A stretch of 64,000 bases of DNA from an uncultured Gammaproteobacteria bacterium (GTDB lineage Bacteria > Patescibacteriota > Patescibacteriia > UBA1558 > GWA2-36-10), in contig CAZWIT010000001.1 of NCBI GenBank assembly GCA_964633905.1, positions 329-64,328 on the forward strand. Direction: 5' to 3'. Each line of letters begins with the position of its first letter. Positions within the stretch are counted from its first letter, which is position 1. Under the pieces are notes generated by a model. That model was not told where the DNA came from, made no database searches, and worked only from the letters and a program-made list of their open reading frames with translations. Position numbers and translations under genes: made by a program. This document shows, piece by piece, positions 337 through 19,449 of this stretch.

Positions 337-1002
337 TTAGTTTTTAGCTAAAACTAGGCAAATTATATTAGAAAAACCAGCATTTTGTAGGGTTTTGGCA
401 GCTTCATTTAAGGTGGCGCCAGTTGTAGCCACATCATCGATAATTATAATAGTTCTTTTTTTGCTAATATTAGCTAAATTAATTTTATTGTTTATCTTAA
501 AAGCATCAATAATATTATTAAGTCTTTCATTTTTTGCTAATTTTGCTTGTTTTTTAGTATTTTTTTGTCTAATTAATAAAGGATAGTATTCAAGCTTAAG
601 TTCTTTAGCTAAGCCCAGGGCCAGCAATTTAGTTTGATCAAAACCTCTTTGCTGCCTTCTTTTAAAATGTAAACTAGGATTAGTAATAATAGTATCAGAA
701 CTTAAGTTTAAATTTTGAGCCTGTTTAGCTAAAATTTTTATTAAATAAATATCTAGATTACGGAAATATTTATATTTAAAAGTTTTAATTAATTTTTGTG
801 TCAGAGGCAAACTATAGTCTAAACAAACATAGCATTTTTTAAATATAAAATCATTAATTGGCCAGGCTTCATGATCGCTGTTTTGTAAGGGGATAGAGTT
901 TAGGCATTTTGGACAAAGCAAATCTCCTTCTTGTTGGCAAGATAGACAAAATTTTGGCCAGATATAATCAAGCCAGTTATTTATTAATTTTTTCCAAGTC
1001 AT
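337..1002 (-). CDS. comFC: ComF family protein (competence protein ComFC-like phosphoribosyltransferase)
   Basis: N-terminal Cys4 zinc finger (CLSCQQ...CPKC) and C-terminal PRTase motif IIIIDDVATTGATL. The 221-aa length is typical of ComFC. Confidence 0.75.
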   Translation of the reverse strand: MTWKKLINNWLDYIWPKFCLSCQQEGDLLCPKCLNSIPLQNSDHEAWPINDFIFKKCYVCLDYSLPLTQKLIKTFKYKYFRNLDIYLIKILAKQAQNLNLSSDTIITNPSLHFKRRQQRGFDQTKLLALGLAKELKLEYYPLLIRQKNTKKQAKLAKNERLNNIIDAFKINNKINLANISKKRTIIIIDDVATTGATLNEAAKTLQNAGFSNIICLVLAKN

Positions 1003-1029
1003 AATCGCTTTTCTTAAGAGGTGATTAAA

Positions 1030-3504
1030 CTATTTGATAATTATTTTTTCTTTTTCCAAAGATAAATTAATATTTTTTTGTTTATTGCTTAGCAATTGTT
1101 TGGCAATCATGTTAGTAATAGTCTCATCAACTAAACGTTGTAAACTACGGGCGCCTTCTTTGCTGGCTTTAGCATTTTTAAGCAGATAATTAATAATAGT
1201 TTTATCAAATTTTAAATTGATATTTTGTTTAGCTAAGCTTTGTTGTAAATTTTCTAAATTTAGAGTAATTATTTTTTTGGCAGCTTGGATAGAAAGTGGT
1301 TCAAAGACAATAACATTATTTAAACGATTGATAAATTCAGGGGGGAAATAATTATTCAAAGAAGAGGTAATACGCTTGCTAGTTTTTTGCCAATCAGTAA
1401 TTGGTTTTTTTTCTTCTTCAGTAGTAAACCCAAGCTCTGCTTGTTGGTTAAAATCTTGTAAGCCAACATTTGAAGTCATGACGATAATGCAATTACGGAA
1501 ATTGACAGTACGTCCAGTAGCGTCAGTTAGTTCGCCTTCTTCTAAAATTGGTAAGAGCAAATTATAAACATCAGGATGAGCCTTTTCTACTTCATCAAGT
1601 AGTATTAGAGTATAAGGTTTGTTTTTGACAACATCAGTCAGCTTATTACCTTCACGATAGCCAACGTAACCAGCTGGGGCGCCGATTAGTTTTGAAATAT
1701 TAAAGCTTTCGGCAAATTCAGACATATCTATTCTTAGCATATTGTGAGTGCCACCAAAAACATATTGTGCTAAACGTTTGGCTGTTTCGGTTTTACCAAC
1801 ACCAGAAGGTCCTAGCAGTAGAAAAGAGGCTAGGGGCTTATTGCTAGCACCTAAGCCAGTTTTAGCTTGGCGAATAGTATTGGCAATAGTAGTCAAGGCT
1901 TTGGCTTGGCCAAAAATATGTTGGCTTAATTTTTTTTCTAAATTGAGTAATCGTTGATTGTCGTCGCTAGTTAGGTTAGTGCTGGGAATACCGGTCATTT
2001 CCGAAATAATACTTTGGATATTGCTGGCATTGATTTTGCCTAATTTAGCTTTTTGTTGTTTGTCTTCTTGGGCTTGTAGTTTTAGTAATTCTTCAATATG
2101 TTTGTCTTCTTGATCTTTATAATTTATAGCCGATAAATAATCTTCGGCAAGTATGGCTTGCTTTTTATTTTCTTGAGCATTGTTTATTTTATCTTCTTGC
2201 GCCTTAATTTGTTTAGCTAAACTATTTTTAGTATTTAAAACTTTAATTCTAGCAGCTGCTTCGTCAATTAAATCAATGGCTTTATCGGGCAATTTTTTAT
2301 CTGGTAAAAAGCGCTTACTTAAAACAACAGCTGCTTCTAAAGCATCGTCTTCAATGTTTACTTTATGAAATTTTTCGTAGTTTTTACGAATACCTTTTAA
2401 AATTTCTAAAGTTTCGGCTTCAGTTGATTCATTAATAATTATTGCTTGAAAACGCCTTTCAAGAGCGCGGTCGCTTTCAATATGTTTTTTGTATTCTTCA
2501 AAAGTAGTGGCGCCAATGCAACGCAGACTGCCTCTTGCTAAAGCAGGTTTTAAAATATTAGCCGCATCCAGTGATCCAGCGGTAGCGCCAGCGCCCATAA
2601 TAGTATGCAGTTCATCGATAAATAAGATAATGTTGGGATTATCTTTGATATCATTTATAATTTGTTTTAAGCGGCTTTCAAATTCACCCCTGTACATAGT
2701 GCCAGCTAAAAGGCTAGGGATGTCTAAATTTAATATTTTTTTATGTAATAAAACATCAGGCACTTGGTTTTCTAAAATACGTTTAGCTAGCCCCTCAATA
2801 ATAGCAGTTTTGCCAACGCCAGCATCACCCAAAAGAACGGGGTTATTTTTGGTGCGACGAGACAAAATTTCGATTAAACGATTAATTTCTTTTTCGCGAC
2901 CGATTACAGGATCAATATCAGCTTGGATTTTGGAGCTAGTTAAGTTAATAGTAAAATTATCCAAAGGGCTATTGTCGCCTAAATTTTCTTCAATCATATT
3001 TTCTAGTTCGTGAATTTTTTCATCACTGGCTAGATCATTAAATTTGGAAGTGCTTTTTAAAACTAAGCTTAAATGTTGGCGTAAATTTTTTAGATCAATA
3101 TTAGCAGCCGCAAAAGTAAGTTTTGTTTCTTCGTCTTCATTTTCAGATAATCCCCAAAGCAAATGCTCGGTGCCAACATATTTGTGTTGGAATTTATAAG
3201 CTGTTACCACGGCTTTTTCAATAATTACTTGCAAGGCTGGGGACGGTTGCGGTAAATCATTAGGATTAATATTTTCAGTTTGGTAATCAGTGCTAATGGT
3301 TTGGCTAATAAAATCTTTATTGATATTTTGTTTTACCAAAATATCAGAGCCTAGAGCTCCTTTGGTATTTATTAAAGAGGCGAGTAAATCAACTACTTCA
3401 ATTTGATTAGCCTTTTTAGCAAAGGCAATATTTTGGGCGTTGATTAAGACCTTTTTAAAATGATAAGTAAATTTATCTAAAATATTTTGTGACTGATCAA
3501 ACAT
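1030..3504 (-). CDS. clpC: AAA+ chaperone ClpC (ATP-dependent Clp protease ATP-binding subunit)
   Basis: Clp_N repeats at the N-terminus. Two Walker A motifs are present (GDAGVGKTAI and GPSGVGKTETAK). The middle domain is short, about 75 aa, which is ClpC-type and not the long ClpB M-domain. An LGF tripeptide loop for ClpP docking is present. Length is 824 aa. Confidence 0.85.
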   Translation of the reverse strand: MFDQSQNILDKFTYHFKKVLINAQNIAFAKKANQIEVVDLLASLINTKGALGSDILVKQNINKDFISQTISTDYQTENINPNDLPQPSPALQVIIEKAVVTAYKFQHKYVGTEHLLWGLSENEDEETKLTFAAANIDLKNLRQHLSLVLKSTSKFNDLASDEKIHELENMIEENLGDNSPLDNFTINLTSSKIQADIDPVIGREKEINRLIEILSRRTKNNPVLLGDAGVGKTAIIEGLAKRILENQVPDVLLHKKILNLDIPSLLAGTMYRGEFESRLKQIINDIKDNPNIILFIDELHTIMGAGATAGSLDAANILKPALARGSLRCIGATTFEEYKKHIESDRALERRFQAIIINESTEAETLEILKGIRKNYEKFHKVNIEDDALEAAVVLSKRFLPDKKLPDKAIDLIDEAAARIKVLNTKNSLAKQIKAQEDKINNAQENKKQAILAEDYLSAINYKDQEDKHIEELLKLQAQEDKQQKAKLGKINASNIQSIISEMTGIPSTNLTSDDNQRLLNLEKKLSQHIFGQAKALTTIANTIRQAKTGLGASNKPLASFLLLGPSGVGKTETAKRLAQYVFGGTHNMLRIDMSEFAESFNISKLIGAPAGYVGYREGNKLTDVVKNKPYTLILLDEVEKAHPDVYNLLLPILEEGELTDATGRTVNFRNCIIVMTSNVGLQDFNQQAELGFTTEEEKKPITDWQKTSKRITSSLNNYFPPEFINRLNNVIVFEPLSIQAAKKIITLNLENLQQSLAKQNINLKFDKTIINYLLKNAKASKEGARSLQRLVDETITNMIAKQLLSNKQKNINLSLEKEKIIIK

Positions 3505-3505
3505 A

Positions 3506-4372
3506 TTACATGCTTCTTAAAGCGTTAATTCTTTTTTCAATAGGGGGGTGAGTAGAAAATAGATTGTTAGCTCCTGCTTTGAATGGGTTAGAAATATAAA
3601 GATGAGCCGTAGCTTTATTAGCGTGTGCTAAGGGCTGATTTTGTTTACTAATTTTTTCTAAAGCTCGAGCTAAACCCTCTGGGTAGCGAGTTAAGAGAGC
3701 GCCCGAAGCATCAGCTAAAAATTCGCGTCGGCGGGAAATAGCTAGTTGGATTAATTTGGCGAATATCGGCGATAAAATAGCTAAAACAATACCAATAATA
3801 GCGATTAAGCCGTTGTTATTTCGATCAGAGCCGCGGCTACGAAATAGGGAACCGCGGATTAACCAATCGGCTAGTAGTGTAATAACACCTACGCAAACAA
3901 TGACTATCATCATTAAGCGGATATCATAATTTTTAATATGAGAGAGTTCGTGGGCAATGACACCTTCTAGTTCTTCATTTTCAAGAGCACTTATAATACC
4001 AGTGGTAAGGGCGATGGAGGCGTGTTTAGGATCTCGGCCAGTAGCAAAGGCATTCATGCTGCTATCATTGATAATATAAACTTTGGGCATAGTAATGCCA
4101 CTGCTAATACTTAAGTTTTCAACTAAACGCCAAACATAAGGATTATCTTCTTTTTTTATTTCTTGAGCGCCAGCTGTGCTTAAGGCGATTTTATCGCCAG
4201 CAAACCAGCTTACTAAATTCAAAGTAGTAGCCAAAATAATAGCCAGAATTACTGGAGTATAACTATCATTACTGTAGTATCCCCAAGCCCAAGCTAGAGC
4301 GACAATAACTAGGGCAAAAATAAACATTAAGAGCCAACTTTTGCGTTTATTACTATCAATTTGATTATACAT
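3506..4372 (-). CDS. htpX: Zinc metalloprotease HtpX (M48 family)
   Basis: HELSHI HExxH motif, N-terminal transmembrane helices, 288 aa, adjacent to lemA, which is a common pairing. Confidence 0.85.
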   Translation of the reverse strand: MYNQIDSNKRKSWLLMFIFALVIVALAWAWGYYSNDSYTPVILAIILATTLNLVSWFAGDKIALSTAGAQEIKKEDNPYVWRLVENLSISSGITMPKVYIINDSSMNAFATGRDPKHASIALTTGIISALENEELEGVIAHELSHIKNYDIRLMMIVIVCVGVITLLADWLIRGSLFRSRGSDRNNNGLIAIIGIVLAILSPIFAKLIQLAISRRREFLADASGALLTRYPEGLARALEKISKQNQPLAHANKATAHLYISNPFKAGANNLFSTHPPIEKRINALRSM

Positions 4373-4440
4373 GTTTAGAATTTTATTTTGTTAACTTATT
4401 TATAAAACTATAATATTATAAAGGCTTTTTGTCAATAATT

Positions 4441-4484
4441 AAAAAATAACCTTCGAGGTCGCGTGACCTCGAAGGTTATTTTGT
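4441..4484. terminator. Bidirectional intrinsic terminator between lemA and htpX
   Basis: Perfect 13-bp stem aaccttcgaggtc-gcgt-gacctcgaaggtt, flanked by an A-run on one side and a T-run on the other. Confidence 0.6.
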
Positions 4485-4492
4485 TGTCCATT

Positions 4493-5047
4493 TTAAAATT
4501 GTACTTTAACGTTTTCTTTTTCTTCTCCCTTGGCTTCAAAATATTCATAAGCAGTAAATTTCAACATGCTAGCAATCAGGTTAGTGGGGAAGACTTGAAT
4601 TTTAGTATTAAAGTCTCTAACTTGACCATTGTAGAAACGACGAGAGGCTTGGATTTTATTTTCGGTGTCAGAAATTTCATCCTGTAATTGTAAAAAGTTT
4701 TGGGAAGCTTTGAGTTCGGGGTAACCTTCAGCAACAGCAAATAAACTTTTTAAAGTACCAGATAAAGCATTTTCAGCTTCAGCTTTGCTTTGAGCACCAG
4801 TGGCTTGCATGGCTTGACTACGAGCTTGAGTAACTTTGGTAAAAACACTGTCTTCGTGTTTCATATAACCACGAACAGTTTCGACTAAGTTAGGGATCAA
4901 ATCATAACGTCTTTTGAGTTGGACATCAATGTCTGACCAGGCTTCTTGCACTCTATTTTTGAGGCGGATTAAAGAATTGTAAACACCGGCTAGCCAAAGT
5001 AGCAATAATATGACTATGACTAGGACGATTATTAATGCAGTAGGCAT
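4493..5047 (-). CDS. lemA: LemA family membrane protein
   Basis: N-terminal TM helix followed by the characteristic LemA sequence ([36 protein letters not shown]). Confidence 0.85.
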
Positions 5048-5232: not shown

Positions 5233-6189
5233 ATGAAGACTTATAAACCAAACCTGATTTTGTCTCTTTTGGTATTAATTGTTTCTTTTTTAAGCATTTT
5301 GGTAATTAATAAACAAGTATTTGCAGTTTGGTATTATCCTCAGGATACACCACCAAATACTAGTATTAATAATAATTTTGTTTTTAATCCAGCTACCGAA
5401 AATTTTAATCTAGGTACTTATAGTTTGTGTTTAGGCGGTGTTTGTAAAGATGCTTGGCCAGCTGGTGGAGGCGGGGGTAGCGATGCTAATTGGTCTATTA
5501 ATACCGCTAGTAGTAATGATTTGTATTATACTACTAGTAGCCCAGCTAGTGGTGAAGTAGGCATTGGTACTAGTACGCCTAATAGTTTGTTGCATTTATA
5601 TAAAATTAGTGGCAATAACGCCGAACTTGATATTCAAAGCGCTGCTGGTGTTAATAATCATTGGGGTATTTATCAAGATCGCTCAAGTAAAGATTTACGA
5701 TTTTGGCAGGGCAGTAATCGAGTTACTTTTGCTGATAGTGGCGAAGTTAGTATTGGTGCGGATCCAGTAGTTGGTGTGCCCTTGTATGTAAATAGTAGTT
5801 CGGCATCTGTATCAATTTTTGCTAATAATACTTATCTAGGCATAGGCGGTGGTACTGGCTTTATGGGCATAGGTACTGGTACAGGTATATTAGGATCAGC
5901 TCCTATTTATGGTGTTCAAGGTATATCTTCGTCTGCTACTGTTGCTACTGGGGCTGGTATATATGGTCAAAATTTTGCTGGTGGTTTAGCGGCTAAATTT
6001 GATGGACCTATTGCTTTAAATGGTAATACTACAGTAGCAAGTGGTAGTTATTTGCAAATTTCAAGTGGCAAATTAGCCCCAGTAGCTGGTGCTTGTACTG
6101 CCAGTGATAGCGGTAGATTATATCTTGCTACTGATGTGCCTACTTTATATTTTTGTAGTAAAGGTACTTGGCTAGGCCTTGTTCCATAA
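5233..6189 (+). CDS. Secreted glycine-rich, fibre-like protein (signal peptide, Gly/Thr/Ser-rich repeats)
   Basis: N-terminal signal/anchor MKTYKPNLILSLLVLIVSFLSILVI...FA. Long runs of GxG/TGxG and no catalytic motifs. A single C-terminal Cys pair is present. It sits immediately upstream of the giant Cys-rich protein and the pilus operon. Confidence 0.6.
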   Translation: MKTYKPNLILSLLVLIVSFLSILVINKQVFAVWYYPQDTPPNTSINNNFVFNPATENFNLGTYSLCLGGVCKDAWPAGGGGGSDANWSINTASSNDLYYTTSSPASGEVGIGTSTPNSLLHLYKISGNNAELDIQSAAGVNNHWGIYQDRSSKDLRFWQGSNRVTFADSGEVSIGADPVVGVPLYVNSSSASVSIFANNTYLGIGGGTGFMGIGTGTGILGSAPIYGVQGISSSATVATGAGIYGQNFAGGLAAKFDGPIALNGNTTVASGSYLQISSGKLAPVAGACTASDSGRLYLATDVPTLYFCSKGTWLGLVP

Positions 6190-6212: not shown

Positions 6213-9200
6213 ATGAAATATATTTCCCATTATCATTTTTTCAGTAGGCTAATAATTAGCCTAATGATTTTTGTTTTGGGATTTTTTATGTTGCAAAAAT
6301 CAGTCTCAACTACCGCTCAAGTATCGCCAGCTGACAGTATCGATCTTACTGGTTGGGCTTGGAATGAAAAAGTAGGCTGGATTAGTTTAAACTGTAACAA
6401 TGATTTTGATGGCGATGGAGATTTAGATAATCAATGTGCTTCGGGTAATTATGGTTTAGAAGTAGTCAATATTGACCTAAATGGTGTTACGACACCTTAT
6501 ATTCAAGGTTGTGCTTGGGCAGGCAATCCTTTAACTAATAGTAAACAATGTAGCGATACTGGCTTGCCTTGTGTAAATGATGCGGCTTGTTCTCCTTCGG
6601 GCACTTGCGAAGCAGTAACCTTGGGTTGGTTATGTTTTTCTGATCCAGGCGGCACTAATGCCCCTGTTAATGGCGTGCCTATTATACAATCAGATTTTTC
6701 TACTCAATTTTGGCAATGTCAGCCAGAAATGGGTTATTGTAATAATGATATTAATCAGTCCTGTAATATTTTCGGGGCCTGTGGCGCTAATAATTGGTGT
6801 GTCCAGCCACTATTTCAGGGTGTTTGTTATAATTATGATGATGCCTATGCTAGCTTGTATCCGCCTAGTATAGCAGGGCTCTCTAAAGAGCAATTAGTTA
6901 ATAATTATGATCCAACTGGGCCTCAACCAGAAGGTTGGCGTTACTGTTATGTTGATTCTAATTGCGCTAATGTTGCTGATGGCGAGGAATGCGTTTATCC
7001 TCAGGTTAATGGCAGAGGTGATTGCGCGGTTGAGCTTGGCGGTGTTGTTTCCTACTCTGGTCAGAACTGTACGTTTGATGATGACTGTATAGATTTTAGT
7101 ATTCCAGGTATAGAATTTTGTGAAATTCAACCAGCAACAGATTTTATTAACCAGTCAGATTGTACAGCCTTGCCTCACACTTGTGATAACGGTTATTATT
7201 GTGCTGCGCAAGCTCCTGTAGATTATATTGCTTATCCTTATGCTCTTGATTATATTAATTTAAATAATAGTGCTAGTTTTTTGAAAATAGATAATGCTTG
7301 GCCAGGTGAGAATTTAGTAAGTTTTCCCATTGATATTAAATTACAGAATAATGTTTTACCATTAAACGATTTTTATGATCCAGATAACCCAGACGCAGAT
7401 GTTAGTTGGTCGGCTGCAAATCCAATTAATGGTTGTTTTAATTGTTATGTTGAAGAAACTAAAAGATGTACGCCTAATTTAAACGCAGTTTGTAATGATA
7501 ATAGCGATTGCCTTGGCGTTTGTAATACAATTACTAATAAATGTAATAATAATCCAAATAAATCATGTACAGTAGCAACTCAAGATGTTGATTGCCAAGA
7601 ACAATGTGTGGTAACTCAAACTAAAAATAAATGTGATAATTGCTTAGAATATTTTTATTATAAAGATGAAACAGTAAAGCGTTGTAATAATGATGATCAG
7701 TTTTCAGCATGTGATACAGATAGTGATTGCTACACTGATGATACTTGTGATGGCTCAACTGGTTATTGTTTTTACCAACCAAATATTGCTTGTAGTGTAG
7801 ATCGTGATTGTCAAGGTTTTTGCGTTGAATATCAAACTAATTGGCGTTGTTCGGATTACAATTATTTTTATTGTCGTGACGGTAATGCCGAGGATTGTGT
7901 AACTCCTGATATTTGTAATTTGCCTACTTGTCGTTCAGATGCTAGCAATATTTGTTCTTATGATGGTGTGGCTGGCGGTTGTGTAAATGGTGATCGTTGC
8001 AGCGTTGATCGTAAATGCGATGGTAATTATTTATTGCCACATTGTTCAACTGATTTAGACTGTTTAAACACTTGTTCAAGTGAAACAAATAAATGTACTA
8101 TGAGCGGCAATGACTGCGTTGATAATGCTGATTGTCAAAATGTCTGCTTAGTAGGTACTACTGATAAATGTTCTATCACTAATAATGACTGTACTTCTGA
8201 TGCAGATTGTGCCAGTGCTGATTTATCTTGCCCAGGCGTTCCTGGTTATTGTTATAATAACACTTCTTGTAATGATGACGCAGACTGTGCCTCTGATTAT
8301 TATTGTCCAACACCTCATTGTTCCAATAATCCAGCTCAAGTTTGCGCTACAAATTATGATTGTTTAGCATCTTCTAGCGATTATGGTACTTGTCAGGAAA
8401 AAACAGTTGGTGCTTTAGAAAAAGTGTTAGCTGGCTATAATTGTTCAGACTGCAATATTCAAAATTTAGAAAACAGTTGTACGCTTAATGCTTATAATAA
8501 AAATATAAATAATTGTGGCACTTGTGAATATTTTTTCAAAACTCCGGGAGTGATTTTAGATAATCATCATAATCGTTTAAATGCTGCTAGTGGCGAAACA
8601 GCAAATTTATGTGGTTGGGGATGGAGTTTTAGTGATGATCAACAGCTAGGTGGTTTAGGCTGGATTAATTTTTCACCAGCTATCACCACGAGTTCTAATC
8701 CTTATTTTTCCGTAGAGCAGGGTAATATTTATGGACAAAAAAATATTTTAAGTCGTTATAATCCACCTTTTCGTAAGTACAACGCCTCTTATCTGATTGA
8801 GTCAGGTGGCAGTATCAATAATTTAGTTAGTTCTAGTACAATTTCAGAAATTTTCCAGGGTGAGCTTGCTTATCGTCCTAATTTAGATTTTTTACGAGAT
8901 AGTGCTAATAGTGGTAAATATAAAAATGTTTTAGGTACCTTGGATTATATGGGCTTAATTACTCCCGCCCAAGCCAATGGTGATCCCATTAATAAATGGG
9001 GCGGCGAAATAGTTGATGTAGCAAATGGTGCGGACCTAGTTAGTAAGGTCAATAATGATGCTATGGCTAATAAAGTTTTTTATGTTAAGGCAGCATCTTT
9101 GCCAGGTGGTACTTTAGATATTGATAGTGAAATAATTTTTAAAATTGGTCAAAATAAAGATAGTGGCGCTGGTATTATAATTATTGAGGGTAATTTGGCT

Positions 9201-9620
9201 ATTAATAAAAATATCACTTATCAGTCTAGCGGTGGGGCAGCTCCTGTTATTCGATATTTAAAAAATATTCCCTCAGCAGTTTGGATAGTCAAAGGCGATG
9301 TAGCCTTGGATCCTAGTGTGACAGATTTAGCTGGCACTTTTGTAGTTTTAGGAGATGGTAATAGTTGTTCTCTTCCGCAAGCTGGTTGTGGTCAATTCAA
9401 GACTGGCAGTGTAATGAGTAGCGCTGATTTGCAATTAAAAGTATCAGGTAGTGTTTTGGCTAAGCGTTTTTATTTAGATCGTTTATTTGTAGATACAAAT
9501 CCAAATAGCCCAACTTATCGAGAGCCAGCAGAAAAATTTAGCAATGATGGTCGTTTGCAGGCTAATCCACCCTTAGGTTTGTCAGATTTTAGTAAAGCTA
9601 TACCTAGGTTTAGTAATTAA
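6213..9620 (+). CDS. Giant secreted cysteine-rich repeat protein, 1135 aa; candidate surface adhesin
   Basis: N-terminal signal/TM segment, then roughly 700 aa of degenerate Cys-rich modules (CxxDxDC...C spacing, over 100 Cys in total) and a roughly 400-aa Cys-poor C-terminal domain. GW-containing segments bracket the protein: TGWAWNEKVGWISLNC near the N-terminus and CGWGWSFSDDQQLGGLGWINFSP later. Confidence 0.7.
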   Translation: MKYISHYHFFSRLIISLMIFVLGFFMLQKSVSTTAQVSPADSIDLTGWAWNEKVGWISLNCNNDFDGDGDLDNQCASGNYGLEVVNIDLNGVTTPYIQGCAWAGNPLTNSKQCSDTGLPCVNDAACSPSGTCEAVTLGWLCFSDPGGTNAPVNGVPIIQSDFSTQFWQCQPEMGYCNNDINQSCNIFGACGANNWCVQPLFQGVCYNYDDAYASLYPPSIAGLSKEQLVNNYDPTGPQPEGWRYCYVDSNCANVADGEECVYPQVNGRGDCAVELGGVVSYSGQNCTFDDDCIDFSIPGIEFCEIQPATDFINQSDCTALPHTCDNGYYCAAQAPVDYIAYPYALDYINLNNSASFLKIDNAWPGENLVSFPIDIKLQNNVLPLNDFYDPDNPDADVSWSAANPINGCFNCYVEETKRCTPNLNAVCNDNSDCLGVCNTITNKCNNNPNKSCTVATQDVDCQEQCVVTQTKNKCDNCLEYFYYKDETVKRCNNDDQFSACDTDSDCYTDDTCDGSTGYCFYQPNIACSVDRDCQGFCVEYQTNWRCSDYNYFYCRDGNAEDCVTPDICNLPTCRSDASNICSYDGVAGGCVNGDRCSVDRKCDGNYLLPHCSTDLDCLNTCSSETNKCTMSGNDCVDNADCQNVCLVGTTDKCSITNNDCTSDADCASADLSCPGVPGYCYNNTSCNDDADCASDYYCPTPHCSNNPAQVCATNYDCLASSSDYGTCQEKTVGALEKVLAGYNCSDCNIQNLENSCTLNAYNKNINNCGTCEYFFKTPGVILDNHHNRLNAASGETANLCGWGWSFSDDQQLGGLGWINFSPAITTSSNPYFSVEQGNIYGQKNILSRYNPPFRKYNASYLIESGGSINNLVSSSTISEIFQGELAYRPNLDFLRDSANSGKYKNVLGTLDYMGLITPAQANGDPINKWGGEIVDVANGADLVSKVNNDAMANKVFYVKAASLPGGTLDIDSEIIFKIGQNKDSGAGIIIIEGNLAINKNITYQSSGGAAPVIRYLKNIPSAVWIVKGDVALDPSVTDLAGTFVVLGDGNSCSLPQAGCGQFKTGSVMSSADLQLKVSGSVLAKRFYLDRLFVDTNPNSPTYREPAEKFSNDGRLQANPPLGLSDFSKAIPRFSN

Positions 9621-9625
9621 TTTGG

Positions 9626-9655
9626 CTTGTAAGTGATAAATATGTTATAATTTAC
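9626..9655 (+). promoter_or_regulatory. Candidate sigma70-type promoter for the pilus operon (TTGTAA ... TGTTATAAT extended -10)
   Basis: Sequence ttgtaagtgataaatatgttataat in the intergenic region upstream of pilM. The spacer is short, so confidence is low. Confidence 0.3.
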
Positions 9656-9756
9656 CCAGTGAAATACCGCCACCAGTAATGTTATTTATATAATAAGCTA
9701 TCTCAATTTAGTATTAAAATATTGAGTATTAATTTAATAAAAATATTAATTAGCGG

Positions 9757-9783
9757 TAGTTTCCGCTTGAAGAGCGGAAACTA
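9757..9783. promoter_or_regulatory. Perfect 10-bp stem / 7-nt loop hairpin in the pilM leader
   Basis: tagtttccgc-ttgaaga-gcggaaacta, lying 37 nt upstream of the pilM start. No U-tract follows. Confidence 0.45.
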
Positions 9784-9819: not shown

Positions 9820-10956
9820 ATGAATTTATTTTCAAGTAGTAATAGTTATTTAGGTATTGATATTGGCACTTCTAGTATCAAGATGGTTGAATTAGAAAAC
9901 TTTAAAGGCCAAGCTAAACTTAAGACTTATGGTTATGCTGATGTTTCTACTAATATTTTGAGAGGCACAGTTGAAAAAAATAATCAGGCTATTGCCGATT
10001 ATATTAATTTAATTGCTAGTAAATCCAAGATAACTAGTCGCCAAGTGGTAGCAGCTTTGCCTACTTTTTCAGTTTTTAATTTTATTATTACCTTACCTCC
10101 TATGCCAAAAAAAGATTTGGCAGCGGCTATTAAATGGGAAGCTAAAAAATTTATCCCTGTGCCTATTGAAGAAATGATTTTGGATTGGAAAATTTTAAAT
10201 AAAAAGAAAGTTAAGGGCAATAGTTTATTTTCTAAAAAAACAGAGGGCAAAGTAGAAACTAAAGACAATTCCGTTAATGCTAATAATATTAGCAATCCTG
10301 CTTCTGCCCATGTTGATGATAAAAATTATAGAATACTACTGACAGCTGCTCCTAAAAATTTAGTAGCTCGCTATATTGATATTTTTAAAAAAGCTAAATT
10401 AAATTTGTTGAGTTTAGAAACGGAAGCTTTTGCTTTATCACGCTCTTTGATTGGTAATGATTTATCAACAATTATGGTTGTGGATATGGGCTCTAGTAAT
10501 ACGGACATCTGTATCATTGAAGAAGGGGTGCCAGTTTTAAATAGAGGTATTGACACTGGTGGTGAATCTTTGACTAAAGGTATTATGAATAGCTTAAATA
10601 TTAATCAAGAACGAGCTGAACAATTTAAGCGCGATTTTGGTTTATCAGCTGGCGCCAATCAAAATATTCCGGATGTGATTGAAAAAAGTTTAGCGGCTAT
10701 TATTAATGAGATTAAATATATTTTTGAAATTTATCAAAGGCAAGGAGCCAGCACTATTGATAAGATTATTTTAACAGGGGGTAGTGCTTGGTTACCTAAA
10801 TTACCAGAATATTTATCTAACTTATTGAAATTGCCAGTAATCATTGGTGATCCTTGGGATCGTATTGTTTATCCTTTAGATTTAAAACCAGTTTTATATG
10901 AGATTGGTCCAAGTATGGCTGTTAGTATTGGTTTAGCCATGCGTGATATACAATAA
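9820..10956 (+). CDS. pilM: Type IV pilus assembly protein PilM (actin-like ATPase fold)
   Basis: N-terminal LGIDIGTSSIKMVEL, which is the PilM/FtsA-like phosphate-1 motif. Length 378 aa. It is the first gene of a pilMNO-pilB block. Confidence 0.85.
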   Translation: MNLFSSSNSYLGIDIGTSSIKMVELENFKGQAKLKTYGYADVSTNILRGTVEKNNQAIADYINLIASKSKITSRQVVAALPTFSVFNFIITLPPMPKKDLAAAIKWEAKKFIPVPIEEMILDWKILNKKKVKGNSLFSKKTEGKVETKDNSVNANNISNPASAHVDDKNYRILLTAAPKNLVARYIDIFKKAKLNLLSLETEAFALSRSLIGNDLSTIMVVDMGSSNTDICIIEEGVPVLNRGIDTGGESLTKGIMNSLNINQERAEQFKRDFGLSAGANQNIPDVIEKSLAAIINEIKYIFEIYQRQGASTIDKIILTGGSAWLPKLPEYLSNLLKLPVIIGDPWDRIVYPLDLKPVLYEIGPSMAVSIGLAMRDIQ

Positions 10957-10984: not shown

Positions 10985-12688
10985 ATGGCCGAAGATAAAA
11001 ATATTAATTTAATGCCAGAGGATCTGCGTAAAAAGGAAGATTTGATTAAAAAATCAAATTGGTCTTTTACGCCAGATTTGTCATCTCCAGTTAATGTAAA
11101 AAATAAGGGCTTACATACTAATAAACCAAGTGGCTCTAACCCTTCTCTTTGGTCTAAGTTATTTTCTTCTTTAAAGCCAGTACCAAAAGTAAAACCAGCG
11201 CCAATTTTAACTCCTGTTAATAAAGCAAATACAAAAGTAGAACCGATTCCTACGCCAGTTATTAAATCTCCTATTTTTATTGCTCCAGATATTAAGGCCA
11301 TGGAAGCAAAAGCAATGCCGCCCAAGCTTGATAAAGTAGAGGAGCATATTCAAGATTTTGTGGCTGATAAAAAAATTAAAGAACCTAAATTAAAAAATAG
11401 CGGTCCTTCTTTTTGGTCTAAGTTATTTTCTTCTTCAAAGTCAGTGCCAAAAGTAAAGCCTATGCCGAATTTAACTCCGGTAAGTTCAGCCAAACCAAAA
11501 ATTGAACCAAAAACTGAGCCTTTGGTAATTCCGACTATTAAGTCTCCTATTTATACGGCGCCAAGTATGAGTCCAATCGCTATTAAGGCAGATAATAACG
11601 TAAAGACAGGCGAGCATATTCAAGATTTTGTGGCTGATAAAAAAATTAAAGAAGCTAAATTAAAAAATAGCGGTCCTTCTTGGTGGCAACGTTTATTATC
11701 TTTTTTTAAGCCTAAGGCCCGCACGCCTAAGCCAGCTAAACCAAGTGCTTCAGTTTTAACGCAGGCCATAAAACGTAATGGTTATAAGGTGGAGACTGCT
11801 AATTTAGAAATGCATCAAGCTACCAAACAAAATGCAGTTATGCCGAAACAGGATCTTAAAGATTTAAATCAAAAAGTTGAAGATATTTTAGAAACAAAAC
11901 CAGTTGTTGAAAAAGTACCTAAAACTGCAGAGGCAGCGGATATTGTTTTGCCTACAGCAGTAGTAAAACCAGAAATAATTAAAACAGAGCCAGTAGCATC
12001 AGATTTTGATATTCCTAGTATGCCAACTGCAGAAAAGCTTTCCAAATCACCAGCAGTTGCAGCCACCCCAGTTGAAAATAATAAATTTCATCAACCTGAT
12101 CTTTTGCATAAAAATGGCTTGATGGGTCAAATTGGTAATGTTGATTTAATACCGCAGGCCGCTAAACTGCGTAGTTGGCGTCAGATTAATGGCTTGCTGT
12201 CTTTAGCTAGTGTTGCGTCATTGCTTATTATCGGAGTTTTTTATGGGGCCTTATTATTGCAAGAGCAGGCCATCATCAAAGAGCAAAAGCTACAACAAAC
12301 AGCCATGTTGGAGCTTGAAAAAAAAGTTTTGAATTTTAATGATTTAAATAAGAATATTAAAGTTTTGGGTGAAGAAATTAATTTAGTGCAAGAAGCATTA
12401 AATAAACACATCTACTGGACAAAGTTTTTTACTCTTTTAGAAAAATATACCTTGCCAGAAGTTTATTATAGCGGTCTTTCGGCTGGTAATAATGGAGCCT
12501 TGACCTTGGGTGCTACTACTGATAGTTATGAGGCTGTAGCTAGGCAGTTAAAGGTTTTACAGGGAGAAGAGGCTAAGGAATTTATCACAGCCGTTAGTAT
12601 TAGTGGTGCTGTAAAAGATGGTAATAAGGTTGGTTTTTCTGTTAATTTAGTATTGAACCCGAATTTATTTTATTATGATAAACAATAG
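10985..12688 (+). CDS. pilN: PilN-like protein with an extended repeat-containing N-terminal region
   Basis: The C-terminal third has a single TM helix (LLSLASVASLLIIGVFYGALLL) followed by a coiled-coil/PilN-like region. Position immediately after pilM supports the call. The N-terminal roughly 300 aa is Pro/Lys-rich with 90-aa tandem repeats. Confidence 0.6.
   Translation: MAEDKNINLMPEDLRKKEDLIKKSNWSFTPDLSSPVNVKNKGLHTNKPSGSNPSLWSKLFSSLKPVPKVKPAPILTPVNKANTKVEPIPTPVIKSPIFIAPDIKAMEAKAMPPKLDKVEEHIQDFVADKKIKEPKLKNSGPSFWSKLFSSSKSVPKVKPMPNLTPVSSAKPKIEPKTEPLVIPTIKSPIYTAPSMSPIAIKADNNVKTGEHIQDFVADKKIKEAKLKNSGPSWWQRLLSFFKPKARTPKPAKPSASVLTQAIKRNGYKVETANLEMHQATKQNAVMPKQDLKDLNQKVEDILETKPVVEKVPKTAEAADIVLPTAVVKPEIIKTEPVASDFDIPSMPTAEKLSKSPAVAATPVENNKFHQPDLLHKNGLMGQIGNVDLIPQAAKLRSWRQINGLLSLASVASLLIIGVFYGALLLQEQAIIKEQKLQQTAMLELEKKVLNFNDLNKNIKVLGEEINLVQEALNKHIYWTKFFTLLEKYTLPEVYYSGLSAGNNGALTLGATTDSYEAVARQLKVLQGEEAKEFITAVSISGAVKDGNKVGFSVNLVLNPNLFYYDKQ
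11141..11760 (+). repeat. Tandem direct repeat, about 270-nt period, 2 full copies plus a partial third, inside the pilN-like gene
   Basis: A 69-nt block gagcatattcaagattttgtggctgataaaaaaattaaagaa(c/g)ctaaattaaaaaatagcggtccttct recurs at 11341 and 11611 with one mismatch. Flanking segments (ccttctYtttggtctaagttattttcttct...) also recur. This encodes the repeated peptide GEHIQDFVADKKIKExKLKNSGPSxW...KVKP. Confidence 0.85.
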
Positions 12689-12693
12689 TTTGT

Positions 12694-13380
12694 ATGGCCA
12701 ATAAAAACGAAATAAAATTTGAACAGCCTTCTGATTTGTTGGTTATAAGCAATCGCTATATAGTAGTTATTATGTCACTTTTGGTTTTTGCTCTTTTGAT
12801 GCTTGGCTACTTCTTTTTACTTAAGCCTAAAATGGTTAGTAATGAGGCTAGACAAGAACAAAATGATAAGAATATTGCCAATCAAGAAGCTAGTCAGAGA
12901 TTGCTTGCTAGTCTAGGCCGCTTAGAAAGCGAGTATAAGAATATCCAAGCTAATCGACAAGCTGATTTAGAGCAGTTAAAGAAAATTTTACCAACCAATC
13001 CGCAAGTAGCAGAAATATTTGTATTATCAGAAAAATTAGCTTTGGATAATGGCTTAAAATTAAATTCCGTTGATATTTCGGTAGATAATAATTCAAATGC
13101 TGAAAAAAATAGTGCTTCAACAGTATTAAAAATTTTACCATTGCGTTTTTCTTTAACTAGAATTTCTGATGAAGAAATGACAGATTTTTTTCCAGAAGGC
13201 TCCGTCCTTCCTTTTGATCCTAATATTGATGATTATACTTTATTTAAAAATTACATTGCTACTTTGGAAAAAAATTTACGTTTAATGGATATTCAGACAT
13301 TATCCTTGCCAGCTCTTTCGGCAGATCCTGAGAGTAATGTACCTAGTTTTAATTTTAGTGTGCTTACTTATTATCGATAA
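12694..13380 (+). CDS. pilO: PilO-like pilus assembly protein (bitopic, coiled-coil)
   Basis: Short cytoplasmic N-terminus, one TM helix, then a coiled-coil periplasmic region. Gene order is pilM-pilN-this gene. Confidence 0.5.
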   Translation: MANKNEIKFEQPSDLLVISNRYIVVIMSLLVFALLMLGYFFLLKPKMVSNEARQEQNDKNIANQEASQRLLASLGRLESEYKNIQANRQADLEQLKKILPTNPQVAEIFVLSEKLALDNGLKLNSVDISVDNNSNAEKNSASTVLKILPLRFSLTRISDEEMTDFFPEGSVLPFDPNIDDYTLFKNYIATLEKNLRLMDIQTLSLPALSADPESNVPSFNFSVLTYYR

Positions 13381-13385: not shown

Positions 13386-13727
13386 ATGGAAAATAAAAAA
13401 AATCTTATTACCTTATTGATTATTTTTGGCATCGTTTTGATAGGCGGTAGCTTGTATTTATTTTATTTTTCCCGTGATGATGTGTCAATTAACTGGTCTC
13501 TTATCAAAGAAGATGCTATGCCACAGGTTGAAATGCAACAAATAGAATCAGCCAAAAATTTAACTCAAGAAAATATTAAAAATTTTGTTAAAACTAATAA
13601 ATTGGATGACTTAGTAAATAGCGAGCAGTATAAGGGTTTAGTTGATCCTAATATTCAAATTGAAATTGGTACAGTAAGCAATCCAGCTCCTTTTACGCAG
13701 CCTTTTGTCGAAGAAAAAAACAACTAG
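13386..13727 (+). CDS. Small membrane-anchored protein in the PilP position of the operon
   Basis: N-terminal TM segment (LITLLIIFGIVLIGGSLYLFYF), 113 aa, translationally coupled between pilO and pilB. No PilP signature is recognisable. Confidence 0.4.
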   Translation: MENKKNLITLLIIFGIVLIGGSLYLFYFSRDDVSINWSLIKEDAMPQVEMQQIESAKNLTQENIKNFVKTNKLDDLVNSEQYKGLVDPNIQIEIGTVSNPAPFTQPFVEEKNN

Positions 13728-15494: not shown

Positions 15495-15866
15495 ATGAAC
15501 AGTAAAAAAATATTAGTAGTAGAAGATGATAACTTTTTATTAGCAATGTATAATACTAAGTTATTATTAGAAAATTTTAAAGTTGTTACTGCAACTACCG
15601 GAGTTCAAGCTTTACGTTTAGTGAATAAAGAAAAACCAGATTTGATTTTGTTGGATTTAAATTTGCCAGAAATGGATGGTTTTGAAGTTTTAGCTAATTT
15701 AAAACACGATAAAGATACTAGCAATATTCCAGTCATTGTTTTGACTAATTATTCCCAAAAAGAGCATATTGATAAATGTTTTGCTTTAGGTGCCGCTGAT
15801 TATTTAATAAAAGCTCATTTTGTGCCAGCCGAAGTGGTTGATAAAATAAAAAAGATTTTAGTTTAA
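15495..15866 (+). CDS. Stand-alone receiver-domain response regulator (CheY/PilH-like)
   Basis: 123 aa. Acidic pocket VVEDDNF, phospho-acceptor region LILLDLNLPEMDGFEV, a conserved Thr in VLTNYS, and a Lys in the KAHF region. There is no output domain. Confidence 0.8.
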   Translation: MNSKKILVVEDDNFLLAMYNTKLLLENFKVVTATTGVQALRLVNKEKPDLILLDLNLPEMDGFEVLANLKHDKDTSNIPVIVLTNYSQKEHIDKCFALGAADYLIKAHFVPAEVVDKIKKILV

Positions 15867-15868: not shown

Positions 15869-16933
15869 ATGTCTGACACTTTATTTATTAATAAGATTTT
15901 AAACATCGCCCTGGAGCGTAGAGCCACGGACGTGCATTTGGTAGTAGCTAATAATCCAGTATTACGTATTGATGGGAGACTAGTTACTTTGACTGATGAG
16001 CAGTTATTGAGTCCAGATTTAATCAATGATTTAGTTGCCTCCTTTTTGAGTCCAGCTAATTTGGAGCGTTTAAATAAAGAAAAAGAAATTACCACTGTTT
16101 ATACTTGGGCTGATCGAGCAAGATTTAGAGCAAAAATATTTTATCAAAAAGGATATTTAGCTCTTTCTATGCGTCTAATTTCATCATTAATTATGTCACC
16201 TAAAGATTTAGGTATACCACAAACAGTAGTGCAGAGTCTAAATAAAACTAGTGGTTTAGTAATCATCACTGGTCCTTATGGTTCAGGTAGGACGACTACA
16301 GCCGCGGCTTTGCTTGAAACTTTAAATCGTAATCGAGGCATGCATATTCAAACCATTGAAGAGCCGATTGAATATTTATTTGTTAATAATCAGTCAGTTA
16401 TTGAACAACGAGAAGTTGGTCGTGATGTTACTAGTTTTAGTAAAGGCTTAGAAACTATTATTGAAGATGATGTGGATGCTGTATTGTTATCTAGTCTACA
16501 CGAAGATGGCTTGGAAGAAATGGTTTTAGAATTAGCTGAAAGTGGTAAATTAGTATTAGTGATTATGGATGCTGATTCGGTGATATCAGCTCTAGATCGT
16601 TTTATTAGTAATTTGTCAGCTGACCGGAGAGCTTGGGGGCAAAATATTTTATCAGAAGTATTATTGGTAGTTTTAGCTCAGCGTCTACTTCCTAGAGTAG
16701 GTGGGGGCATGGCTTTGGCTTGTGAAGTTTTAACTACCACGCCAGCTGTTAAATCAAGTATCAAAGAAAACCATTTATATCAGTTAAGTAGTATTATGCA
16801 AACTTCTCGTGAAGAGGGCATGGTTTATTTAGATAAATCTTTATGGGATTTAGTGCGGGCTGGTGATATTGCTGCCGAAGAAGCAATGAAGGTAGCTGAT
16901 AATCCTCAAATATTTAAACAAGCAATTAAGTAA
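15869..16933 (+). CDS. PilT-like hexameric ATPase paralogue with degenerate catalytic motifs; predicted pseudo-ATPase
   Basis: Overall it matches the PilT architecture (N-terminal PAS-like domain, HIQTIEEPIEY Asp-box region, 354 aa). Walker A reads GPYGSGRTT, with the lysine replaced by Arg; the codon AGG was checked in the nucleotide sequence. The Walker B region is DAVLLSSLHED in place of DIILVGEMRD, so the catalytic Glu is lost. The His box is KLVLVIMDAD in place of GHLVFGTLHT, so both His residues are lost. Confidence 0.8.
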   Translation: MSDTLFINKILNIALERRATDVHLVVANNPVLRIDGRLVTLTDEQLLSPDLINDLVASFLSPANLERLNKEKEITTVYTWADRARFRAKIFYQKGYLALSMRLISSLIMSPKDLGIPQTVVQSLNKTSGLVIITGPYGSGRTTTAAALLETLNRNRGMHIQTIEEPIEYLFVNNQSVIEQREVGRDVTSFSKGLETIIEDDVDAVLLSSLHEDGLEEMVLELAESGKLVLVIMDADSVISALDRFISNLSADRRAWGQNILSEVLLVVLAQRLLPRVGGGMALACEVLTTTPAVKSSIKENHLYQLSSIMQTSREEGMVYLDKSLWDLVRAGDIAAEEAMKVADNPQIFKQAIK

Positions 16934-16936: not shown

Positions 16937-18151
16937 ATGTTATTATTTAAATACAGGGCCAGAACTAGAGACGGGGCAATGACTAAAGGTGTAGTAGAGG
17001 CCTCGAGCAGTCAAGAGGCAGCAGAAATTTTAGCTGATCGCGATTTGATAGTTCTGTATTTAGAGGCTAGTAAAAATAAAAGTACTAAACATAGTATTAA
17101 TTTTAATATTGGTAAAGTTAGTCAAAAAGATTTAGTAATATTTTCGCGTCAGTTGGCAGTGATGATTCAGGCCACCATACCGATTGTTCAAGCTTTAAGG
17201 ATTTTAGCCCAGCAAACTTCTAACCCAATATTTTTAAGCAAAGTTAACGAGATGGCTAATGATGTTGATGGTGGTATGAAGTTATCGGATGCTCTTGCCA
17301 AACACAAGAAAATTTTCAGTAATTTTTATGTAGCCATGATTCGTTCTGGTGAAACTTCTGGTCGTTTGGAAGAAGTATTAGAATATTTGGCTGATCAGAT
17401 GGAAAAGGATTATGATCTCACATCGCGTATTAAGGGCGCTATGATTTATCCAGTTTTGATTTTATTTGGTATGGTCGGCGTTGGTACTTACGTGGTAGTA
17501 GCGATTTTGCCAAAAATGACAGTTATTTTAAAAGAAACTAGCACTGAGTTGCCGCTGGTTACTAGGGTTTTGATTGGTATTTCAGATTTTATGGTTGCAG
17601 CTTGGATTTGGATTTTACTTTTCTTACTTGGTTTGGGAGCTTTGTTTTATTGGTGGAAAAATAGCCGTTTAGGTAAATTGATTTGGGATTCTATTAAGAT
17701 TAAGATGCCAATTTTTGGAGCTCTTTATAAAAAGATATATTTAGTCCGTTTTACTAGAAGCTTATCAACTTTGATTCATGGTGGCGTACCAATTTCTTTG
17801 GCATTAAGAATTGTAGCTGAAGTTGTGGATAATCAGGCTTACCAAAAATTGATTTTAGACACAGTAGCAGAAGTAGAGGGTGGTAACTCTATCTCTACTT
17901 TATTTGCTCGTTCGCCTTTGATGCCAAAAATGCTTTCGCAAATGATGGTAATTGGCGAGCGAACTGGTAAAATAGACACTATTTTAGATAGATTGAGTGA
18001 TTTTTATAGCCGAGAAATTAATTTAATGGTATCTAATTTAACAACTTTGATAGAGCCTTTAATCTTAATTATTATGGGCGTGGGTGTCGGTGGTATGGTA
18101 GCGGCTGTTATGTTGCCTATGTATCAAGTAGCTCAAAGTATGTCGCAATAG
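16937..18151 (+). CDS. pilC: Type IV pilus inner-membrane platform protein PilC (GspF family)
   Basis: 404 aa. Two T2SS-F-like repeats with three TM segments. It sits next to pilB/pilT-like in a conserved position. Confidence 0.85.
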   Translation: MLLFKYRARTRDGAMTKGVVEASSSQEAAEILADRDLIVLYLEASKNKSTKHSINFNIGKVSQKDLVIFSRQLAVMIQATIPIVQALRILAQQTSNPIFLSKVNEMANDVDGGMKLSDALAKHKKIFSNFYVAMIRSGETSGRLEEVLEYLADQMEKDYDLTSRIKGAMIYPVLILFGMVGVGTYVVVAILPKMTVILKETSTELPLVTRVLIGISDFMVAAWIWILLFLLGLGALFYWWKNSRLGKLIWDSIKIKMPIFGALYKKIYLVRFTRSLSTLIHGGVPISLALRIVAEVVDNQAYQKLILDTVAEVEGGNSISTLFARSPLMPKMLSQMMVIGERTGKIDTILDRLSDFYSREINLMVSNLTTLIEPLILIIMGVGVGGMVAAVMLPMYQVAQSMSQ

Positions 18152-18183: not shown

Positions 18184-18321
18184 TAATACTGTGGGGTATT
18201 CCACAAAATTAAAGTTATATTAATTAAATTATCAAGCTGAACTATTTTGAAATTTAGAGCTTCAGAGATCTCAAGCTTTAACTTTATCAGGGCAGTTTGG
18301 TGTAGGAGAGGAGGTGTAAAA

Positions 18322-19420: not shown

Positions 19421-19435
19421 TTTTTATATTAGTTG

Positions 19436-19449
19436 AAATTTGCTATAAT
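19436..19449 (+). promoter_or_regulatory. Pilin promoter motif, copy 3 (aaatttgctataat)
   Basis: Exact repeat of copy 1, just upstream of pilin 3. Confidence 0.45.

Follow-up and report, generated by a model that had tools for sequence, protein, structure and literature searches.

The DNA analyzed here, a window of 64,000 nucleotides (nt) from contig CAZWIT010000001.1 (assembly GCA_964633905.1), contains a type IV pilus gene cluster preceded by an open reading frame (ORF) for a cysteine-rich protein of 1135 amino acids (aa). This ORF, at positions 6213-9620 of the forward strand with an ATG start, is the subject of this work, and its product is called the target below. On solid sequence grounds, the target appears to be exported and disulfide-bonded, to be genetically tied to the type IV pilus, and to belong to a family almost confined to bacteria of the Candidate Phyla Radiation (CPR). 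An earlier, sequence-only reading of the window had singled out this ORF, which stands, as encoding a "giant" protein, an overstatement for its length. The regions of the target are the following:

6213-6320, forward strand: Sec-type N-terminus, residues 1-36, with the n-region MKYISHYHFFSR, a hydrophobic core of ~15 residues and the polar c-region SVSTTA/Q
6321-6692, forward strand: conserved N-terminal domain, residues 37-160, 8 Cys, with the first Gly-Trp (GW) hairpin TGWAWNEKVGWISLNC at residues 46-61
6693-7424, forward strand: insert 1, subfamily-specific, residues 161-404, 16 Cys, including a hypervariable patch at residues 200-262
7425-7682, forward strand: Cys framework 1 (GCFNCY ... 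CDNCLEYFYY), residues 405-490
7683-8402, forward strand: degenerate four-Cys module array, C-x6-8-C-xx[DN]xD-C-x3-5-C-x4-8, residues 491-730
8403-8612, forward strand: Cys framework 2 (LAGYNCSDCNI ... NSCTLNAY.N.NNCGTC ... LC), residues 731-800
8613-9620, forward strand: second GW hairpin GWGWSFSDDQQLGGLGWINFSP and predicted beta-solenoid-like C-terminal domain, ending PAEKFSNDGRLQANPPLGLSDFSKAIPRF, residues 801-1135 plus the stop codon

Cysteine makes up 7.0% of the target (80 residues, where more than 100 had been claimed) against 0.89% in the other window ORFs of at least 100 aa, an enrichment far above chance. Nearly all of these cysteines (78 of the 80) fall within residues 61-800, and two lie in the last 335 residues, the Cys-poor, beta-rich C-terminal domain that had been recognized earlier but given a length of about 400 aa. 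The CxxDxDC spacing does recur as described (six exact copies, ten in the relaxed [DN] form), whereas the C-x3-C spacing named along with it occurs five times and C-x5-C is the most frequent (21 times). The degenerate modules were recovered as ~11 four-Cys units at residues 419-727; no tandem or dispersed DNA repeats were found under them, which suggests that they are old and degenerate and rules out a recent duplication, and no paralogue of the target was found elsewhere in the window. The module array, with 36 Cys and 14.6% Asp, has an isoelectric point (pI) of about 4, and the mature protein is strongly acidic (pI 4.1, net charge about -75; C-terminal domain pI 5.35).

The proposed N-terminal signal or anchor corresponds to the single hydrophobic segment of the protein, at residues ~9-32. 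In the family, the n-region has the consensus MKxDFHFHFYSR (longer form MKxDFHFHFYSRI) and is followed by the hydrophobic core and SVxTxA; in the target, SVSTTA/Q resembles a signal peptidase I site, cleavage being predicted by the -3/-1 rule only. The conservation of the N-terminus in the family shows the ATG at 6213 to be the true start, and the public annotation (P0001), which begins at Met18 and gives 1118 aa, is truncated by 17 codons. The n-region itself (6213-6248, residues 1-12, and the equivalent position in loci L002-L029) shows unusual conservation and many His and aromatic residues. The MKxDFHFHFYSR motif occurs in one copy per locus and is limited to the target family, and some of the codon changes within it are synonymous, as if selection acted at the peptide level. 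The motif may serve a dedicated targeting or, if the signal is uncleaved, docking on the cytoplasmic side.

Several identities were rejected. The target is not a pilin, as it has no prepilin or N-methyl match (PF07963 / TIGR02532) while six neighboring ORFs do, and its N-terminus (MKYISHYHFFSRLIIS...) has neither a Gly-Phe nor a Glu at position 5. It is not a lipoprotein (no Cys before residue 61), nor a sortase or exosortase substrate (its C-terminus, ...GLSDFSKAIPRFSN, has no hydrophobic segment), nor a secretin of the PilQ or GspD type (no secretin or N0/N1 match in Pfam or NCBIfam). A homologue of PilY1/PilC was also discarded, with no Pfam match to the Neisseria_PilC family at E ≤ 10 and with fold matches to beta-helices, not propellers; no PilY1 homologue was found among the scanned ORFs of the cluster either.

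A protein search returned 33 homologues of 627-1118 aa, all from Patescibacteria and all unnamed or annotated as "hypothetical"; the unnamed CPR family discussed here is defined by the alignments of this analysis. The homologues have in common the N-terminus, the first GW hairpin and residues ~700-1135, and their middle part varies in length. An exhaustive profile search gave 3339 clusters (50% identity) at E ≤ 1e-3 and 368 at E ≤ 1e-30. For the more distant members listed, the best-matching stretch of the family profile was the C-terminal domain, and the named members belong to Komeilibacteria, Buchananbacteria, Parcubacteria or Patescibacteria, except for one weak partial match, a Sedimentisphaerales-labelled protein whose match is confined to the solenoid core. 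Distant members retain the signal peptide, 1-7 GW hairpins and a C-terminal domain ending in DGRLxxNPPxGLxDFxKxLPxF, some of them with just 2 Cys. The target carries both hallmarks of the family, namely a GW hairpin within ~10-20 residues after the Sec-type N-terminus and a last GW hairpin fused to a ~335-aa C-terminal domain ending in DGRLxxNPPxGLxDFxKxxPxF. The Sec N-terminus and the GW motif are kept in 33/33 close homologues and in most of the 172 homologues collected.

Both GW segments pointed out earlier, at residues 46-61 and 800-822, proved to be copies of a family-wide repeat, which confirms the proposed duplication. Its consensus is GWAWx(3-4)GWIxLN, and up to 7 tandem 29-aa units were found (in P0128). 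Further secreted proteins of CPR, whose C-terminal parts are unrelated, also start with a signal peptide and a GW module. Choline- and cell-wall-binding hairpin repeats (CW_binding_1) and the Listeria GW modules typically bind wall polymers non-covalently, and the target hairpins resemble them as short aromatic Gly-Trp hairpins that follow a signal peptide in variable number, but there is no Pfam match, and consensus and period differ.

The conserved positions of the family gather around these hairpins and two Cys frameworks. In the N-terminal domain, conservation reaches at least 90% for G47, W48, G55, W56 and C61, and L59, G99, C100, G138 and C141 are invariant. Invariant residues are C408, F409, N410, C411, C444, C465, C474, N476, C477 and Y480 in framework 1 and C744, C747, C756, N764, N766, C768, C771, D783 and C800 in framework 2. 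A minimal framework of 20 Cys (14 invariant, 6 at least 90% conserved) is present in the shortest members. The number of mature Cys is even in 32 of the 33 homologues (P = 4e-9), as would be expected if each of them were paired. A fully disulfide-bonded, extracytoplasmic state, with the many disulfides suggested by the sequence-only reading and a Cys pattern conserved among orthologues, finds support in this framework, in the even counts and in a variant 86% identical to the target (P0224, see below) that keeps 80/80 Cys. The Cys-rich inserts together contribute from 0 to ~50 Cys across the homologues, with the largest total in the window protein: insert 1 spans 43-295 aa and 0-24 Cys, and the second insert slot (about residues 481-730) spans 3-339 aa and 0-36 Cys, with its maximum in the target.

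Neither the whole target nor its thirds gave a match in Pfam (even at E ≤ 10), NCBIfam, PHROGs or PADLOC, no match was found when PDB sequences were searched with the family profile, and no published description of the family was found in the literature. A Pfam scan of 82 members detected DUF4215 (5 members) and Laminin_G_3 (2 members) only, both in variable parts; in P0022, a LamG domain fills the second slot in place of the module array. DUF4215, the Myxococcus cysteine-rich repeat, resembles the target modules as an extracellular Cys-rich repeat, and it is found in these 5/82 superfamily members and in the pilin at 21118-21921 of the window; however, the target modules do not match it (PF13948) even at E ≤ 10, with the whole protein or its thirds, and this identity was rejected. 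Unknown membrane or secreted families are known to adjoin pilB, pilC and pilM in Patescibacteria (PMC10849945). A 2026 preprint on a "Pam pilus" deals with another system, of the donor-strand-exchange type. What is new here is the family, the GW hairpin repeat, the C-terminal domain and the 80-Cys expansion; the functional class of pilus-linked surface proteins is already known.

A CPR-type locus with identical gene order is carried by several TPA_asm metagenome-assembled genomes (MAGs) titled "uncultured Gammaproteobacteria" (L004, L005, L016, L020-L022, L026, L029, L031), and these labels are probably wrong. The target comes from a CPR bacterium of the Parcubacteria type, which probably has no outer membrane.

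The genes around the target are the following:

337-5047, reverse strand: phosphoribosyltransferase, ClpB, M48 peptidase and LemA
5233-6189, forward strand: secreted Gly-rich fibre-like protein of 318 aa (from its translation), ending 23 nt 5' of the target
9820-10956, forward strand: pilM (Pfam/NCBIfam), starting 199 nt 3' of the target
10985-12688, forward strand: pilN, its translation starting with MAEDKNINLMPED, of the PilM-binding motif type
12694-13380, forward strand: pilO-like gene (Pfam/NCBIfam)
13386-13727, forward strand: membrane protein of 113 aa
13734-15476, forward strand: pilB (Pfam/NCBIfam)
15495-15866, forward strand: stand-alone receiver-domain protein (Pfam/NCBIfam)
15869-16933, forward strand: pilT (Pfam/NCBIfam)
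16937-18151, forward strand: pilC (Pfam/NCBIfam)
18247-18804, 18914-19420 and 19433-19864, forward strand: three pilin genes (Pfam/NCBIfam)
19867-20295, forward strand: further ORF, 3' of the three pilins
20382-21164, forward strand: prepilin peptidase pilD (Pfam/NCBIfam)
21118-23231, forward strand: three more pilins (Pfam/NCBIfam), one with a DUF4215 Cys-rich domain
28565-29353, forward strand: DsbA-like gene (DsbA/MdbA-like, Thioredoxin_4-like), 19 kilobases (kb) downstream, beyond ligA and gatCA

The adjacency of the target to the Gly-rich protein and to the pilus genes was thus confirmed. The co-location with a DsbA-like oxidoreductase was not, since at 19 kb, behind ligA and gatCA, this gene lies outside the operon. 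The distant arrangement is conserved, with a DsbA-like gene likewise found after ligA-gatC-gatA in L039 (17055-17798), the locus of a distant relative. CPR are known to be enriched in an MdbA-like oxidoreductase (bioRxiv 10.1101/335083).

Wherever a related locus includes downstream DNA (~27 loci), a homologue of the target lies directly 5' of pilM, which follows it by 80-150 nt. These loci share the gene order of the window, from LemA through the Gly-rich gene(s) and the target to PilM-N-O, the small protein, PilB, the receiver, PilT and PilC, with no LemA or Gly-rich match found in a few of them; the order of the pilus genes is conserved in L001-L034 and L037. The synteny holds across PilB identities from 83% down to 51%. 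We tentatively favor the view, drawn by analogy, that the target is a non-pilin pilus-associated adhesin, which might work like PilY1, ComZ or the tapirins without being homologous to them, and the constant place 5' of pilM is a first argument for it. The same synteny fits a machine role equally well. The target would then be a structural part of the CPR type IV pilus machine, such as an extracytoplasmic ring, a collar, an outlet through the wall or S-layer, or an alignment partner of PilN/PilO. Its role would be like that of the PilQ/TsaP-type parts of diderms, with the Cys-rich inserts as length-adjustable spacers, and we consider this unlikely but a serious alternative. The invariance of the place directly before pilM-pilN-pilO over deep divergence speaks for it, as do the wide variation in insert length, expected of a spacer, and the absence of PilQ from CPR (bioRxiv 10.1101/335083), whose known pilus inventory so far comprises only the generic PilB, C, D, M and T along with divergent pilins (same source).

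Evolutionary rates bear on the same question. Identities of relatives to the window proteins are 31-50% for the C-terminal domain of the target, 31-49% for PilN, 26-39% for PilO, 55-82% for PilM and 51-83% for PilB. The C-terminal domain thus resembles the extracytoplasmic PilN/PilO and stays below PilM/PilB (51-83%), which is in keeping with the adhesin, and its evolution at the PilN/PilO rate would also suit a machine part. So would the presence of two pilus clusters in one MAG bin, each with its own family member (L024, L027), though the two clusters could be two genomes binned together. On the other side, the target would have no membrane anchor if its signal peptide is cleaved, carries no secretin or other machine-family signature, and is separated from pilM by a promoter-like site. 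Furthermore, some full family members are found beside pilD and pilins and not beside pilM. Indeed, the full member P0128 lies directly 5' of pilD and a pilin set, and P0215, a GW-only relative, lies between pilD and the minor pilins. As this is the usual place of PilY1-type genes, these two cases argue for the adhesin, as does the sequence of the target, which places it with neither the pilins nor the secretins nor PilY1.

The promoter-like site, TTGGCT-18-TATAAT with a TG extension (extended -10), is located at 9622-9651, right after the stop codon of the target, and no canonical terminator was found 3' of the target. On the 5' side, the Gly-rich gene and the target are probably co-transcribed, since the gap between them is just 23 nt. 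Both observations would suit a unit in which the target forms a surface fibre or adhesin with the Gly-rich tail-fibre-like protein(s), as base, anchor or assembly partner, independently of the neighboring pilus. Consistent with such a unit, 1-3 Gly-rich paralogues precede the target homologue at the equivalent position in related loci, the Gly-rich protein weakly matches the phage tail-fibre family phrog_18345 (E 4e-5), and relatives of the Gly-rich genes give faint YadA_head or bactofilin matches. However, target and pilM stay adjacent even in loci whose Gly-rich genes show poor conservation, at 24-53% identity. Moreover, L037 has no called gene for ~4.5 kb upstream, no Gly-rich match was found in L024, L025 or L027, and the members located by pilD and pilins have no Gly-rich neighbor. 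We therefore regard an independent fibre unit as rather improbable.

The first three pilins of the cluster are themselves Cys-rich (4-5% Cys), with even counts of 8, 8 and 6 cysteines. This similarity to the target argues for the adhesin, and the whole extracellular pilus set looks heavily disulfide-bonded. The ORF of the DUF4215 pilin (21118-21921), which has an N-methyl motif, shares 47 nt with the 3' end of pilD; its place is taken in L039 by the GW-repeat protein P0215, of 773 aa.

The variability of the target between close variants was evaluated with P0224, which comes from a separate assembly with matching gene order. Identity to P0224 is 93% in the N-terminal domain (37-160), 69.5% in insert 1 (161-404), 41.5% in the hotspot at 200-262 inside insert 1, 88% in framework 1 (405-490), 82% in the module array (491-730), 98.6% in framework 2 (731-800) and 94% in the C-terminal domain (801-1135). 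The hypervariability raised by the sequence-only reading was thus observed, with a divergence that gathers in the inserts, and the concentration of the drop at 200-262 suggests a constrained scaffold carrying a fast-diverging local surface patch. This pattern and the replacement of Cys modules by LamG in some relatives both fit a binding surface. The pattern speaks for the adhesin, as does the fact that the variable slot hosts adhesion-type modules (Laminin_G_3, DUF4215) in relatives. A patch that is hypervariable between close variants and LamG insertions would be unusual for the buried part of a machine. The architecture as a whole, variable toward the N-terminus and conserved over the ~335-aa C-terminal domain, mirrors that of PilY1, which also favors the adhesin.

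The full-length AlphaFold model of the target has a predicted local distance difference test score (pLDDT) of 67, is poor at residues 557-722 and 824-892, and gave nothing significant when compared to the PDB with Foldseek. In this model, the first GW region forms beta strands (43-58), and framework 1 forms long beta hairpins (408-419 and 465-482) with pLDDT 80-90. The C-terminal domain, for which a local C-terminal hidden Markov model matches the target at E 2e-133, was modeled separately: residues 790-1135, with an alignment of 82 sequences, gave pLDDT 90.8 and a predicted template modeling score (pTM) of 0.86. This model consists mainly of short beta strands, apparently of the solenoid type, and one 10-residue helix, so that the domain is predicted to be beta-solenoid-like. 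No Foldseek match was obtained for it at E ≤ 1e-3. The best PDB match, ComZ (6qvi; E 0.014, probability 0.60, template modeling (TM) score 0.29), and the next ones, DUF3494 proteins with the ice-binding fold (E 0.02-0.1), are below significance. DUF3494 again came first in the viral BFVD library (E 0.03, probability 0.84), tapirins followed at E 1-3, and beta-helix lyases and adhesins ranked lower. The structure search proposed earlier therefore yielded a weak beta-solenoid resemblance and no significant match.

The low-ranking matches include right-handed beta-helix lyases and hydrolases (1pcl, 7xks, PL6 lyases, 1czf), which raises the question of a glycan-degrading or -binding enzyme, of the pectate-lyase or tailspike type, that would cut wall polymers of the host or of the cell itself at the pilus site. 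Conserved polar residues could serve such an activity: across the superfamily, E1107 and N1118 are invariant, and D911, D1029, R1090, D1112 and R1114 nearly so. G1028, G1079 and P1131 of the C-terminal domain are invariant as well. However, most of the conserved polar residues are within the last ~30 residues, where they look like parts of a cap or tail and not of a groove, the lyase and hydrolase matches have E > 1, and neither Pfam nor NCBIfam gave an enzyme family match, even with the threshold relaxed to E ≤ 10, making an enzyme very unlikely.

The top match raises another alternative, an extracellular DNA receptor for natural transformation. ComZ of Thermus thermophilus binds DNA at the pilus tip (PMC6561018), and CPR are thought to rely on DNA uptake via pili (bioRxiv 10.1101/335083). 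Against this stand the very acidic mature protein and C-terminal domain (pI values above), the weakness of the ComZ match itself, and the fact that ComZ is a pilin with an inserted solenoid, where the target has no prepilin signal or pilin domain. We see little chance that the target is a DNA receptor, the least probable of the readings weighed here. As the best C-terminal match is a large beta-solenoid located at the tip of a type IV pilus (PMC6561018), ComZ nevertheless lends support to the adhesin.

In the adhesin scenario, the target would be exported by Sec, and its 80 Cys would then all form disulfides, possibly with the help of the DsbA/MdbA-like oxidoreductase of the window. The scaffold, in which the 20-Cys framework joins the GW hairpins and the predicted beta-solenoid domain at the C-terminus, would dock to pilus parts outside the cytoplasm, be it the tip complex of minor pilins or the fibre itself. 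The acidic, disulfide-stapled inserts (161-404, including the patch 200-262, and the array 491-730) would project as a rigid stalk or binding surface and contact a ligand on a host cell or surface, and PilT retraction would then pull the cell to its target. The analysis establishes the ORF, its export-type N-terminus, the even Cys counts, the family, the synteny, the confident beta-rich C-terminal model with its weak beta-solenoid matches, and the places where variability concentrates; we infer the cleavage of the signal peptide, the docking and the function as an adhesin. The sequence-only reading had proposed a host-adhesion or pilus-tip protein; its link to the pilus is strongly upheld by the strict synteny, and a placement at the tip and host binding are hypothetical.

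Several points weigh against this scenario. A physical link of the target to the pilus or to a ligand is hypothetical, all the fold matches are non-significant (E > 0.01, TM 0.2-0.4), and the module array is modeled at low confidence. Adhesins usually show a looser synteny, and genes directly before pilMNO more typically encode machine components. The probable co-transcription with the Gly-rich gene and the promoter-like site after the stop codon may indicate a separate surface-fibre unit. Finally, as the GW module also starts unrelated secreted proteins, this module, and not the C-terminal domain, could be the anchor.

PilY1/PilC is a non-pilin pilus-tip adhesin and biogenesis factor in Pseudomonas and Neisseria. 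The target resembles it as a large Sec-exported non-pilin encoded in a pilus gene cluster, whose N-proximal part varies while the C-terminal domain is conserved, and its acidic Asp-rich motifs could bind calcium, as in PilY1. However, there is no sequence match, the C-terminal domain of the target is a predicted beta-solenoid where that of PilY1 is a beta-propeller, the gene lies before pilM and not inside a minor-pilin operon, and the organism is a CPR bacterium that likely lacks an outer membrane.

Tapirins of Caldicellulosiruptor (4wa0, 6n2b) are beta-helix adhesins encoded beside a type IV pilus locus (bioRxiv 10.1101/359786), and their appearance among the lower fold matches also counts for the adhesin. 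Nevertheless, in addition to the non-significant fold match, it is the N-terminal part that is conserved in tapirins and a C-terminal helix that binds the ligand (same source), where the target conserves its C-terminal domain. The DUF3494/ice-binding fold (3wp9, 4nu2, 6bg8) was a recurrent weak match in two independent libraries and, as a beta-solenoid with a flanking helix, is common in secreted surface proteins; however, there is no Pfam match at E ≤ 10, the TM score is only 0.2-0.4, and there is no sign of ice binding.

In CPR/Patescibacteria, type IV pili are believed to have a key part in attachment to the host, movement on it and the uptake of its DNA, and the target family, with thousands of clusters and lineage-variable surface modules, is locked to their gene cluster and has no Pfam or NCBIfam model. 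A bolder proposal would make the family an essential element of the pilus apparatus, specific to CPR and without counterpart elsewhere, namely the missing envelope outlet or collar or an obligatory tip complex in these episymbionts without an outer membrane, with the GW repeat as a new wall- or pilus-binding module and the disulfide-stapled inserts as the host-recognition determinant that sets host range; we find this conceivable, although on balance doubtful. If the target is an adhesin or an obligatory part of the machine, it would open a direct way to study how uncultured Parcubacteria recognize their hosts, and two new domain families, the GW hairpin repeat and the C-terminal solenoid, would be worth curating. 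If it is merely an accessory surface protein, the family would be well defined yet ordinary.

A few other features of the locus were observed. The end of the Gly-rich protein carries a motif with two Cys, GRLYLATDVPTLYFCSKGTWLGLVP, reminiscent of the C-terminal knobs of fibres. PilN has the canonical INLxP-type N-terminal motif followed by a cytoplasmic low-complexity linker of ~400 aa, unusually long for PilN, with three repeats of a motif like GPSFWSKLFSS.K.VPKVKP. The receiver-domain protein is found between pilB and pilT in the window and in every related locus. In the pilM leader (9752-9783), 9757-9767 and 9773-9783 form a perfect hairpin of 11 bp that competes with a smaller one (9752-9756 with 9763-9767), and this could be a terminator- or attenuator-like element. 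Further downstream, a small ORF (41120-41671) encodes a protein of 183 aa with 9 Cys (4.9%).

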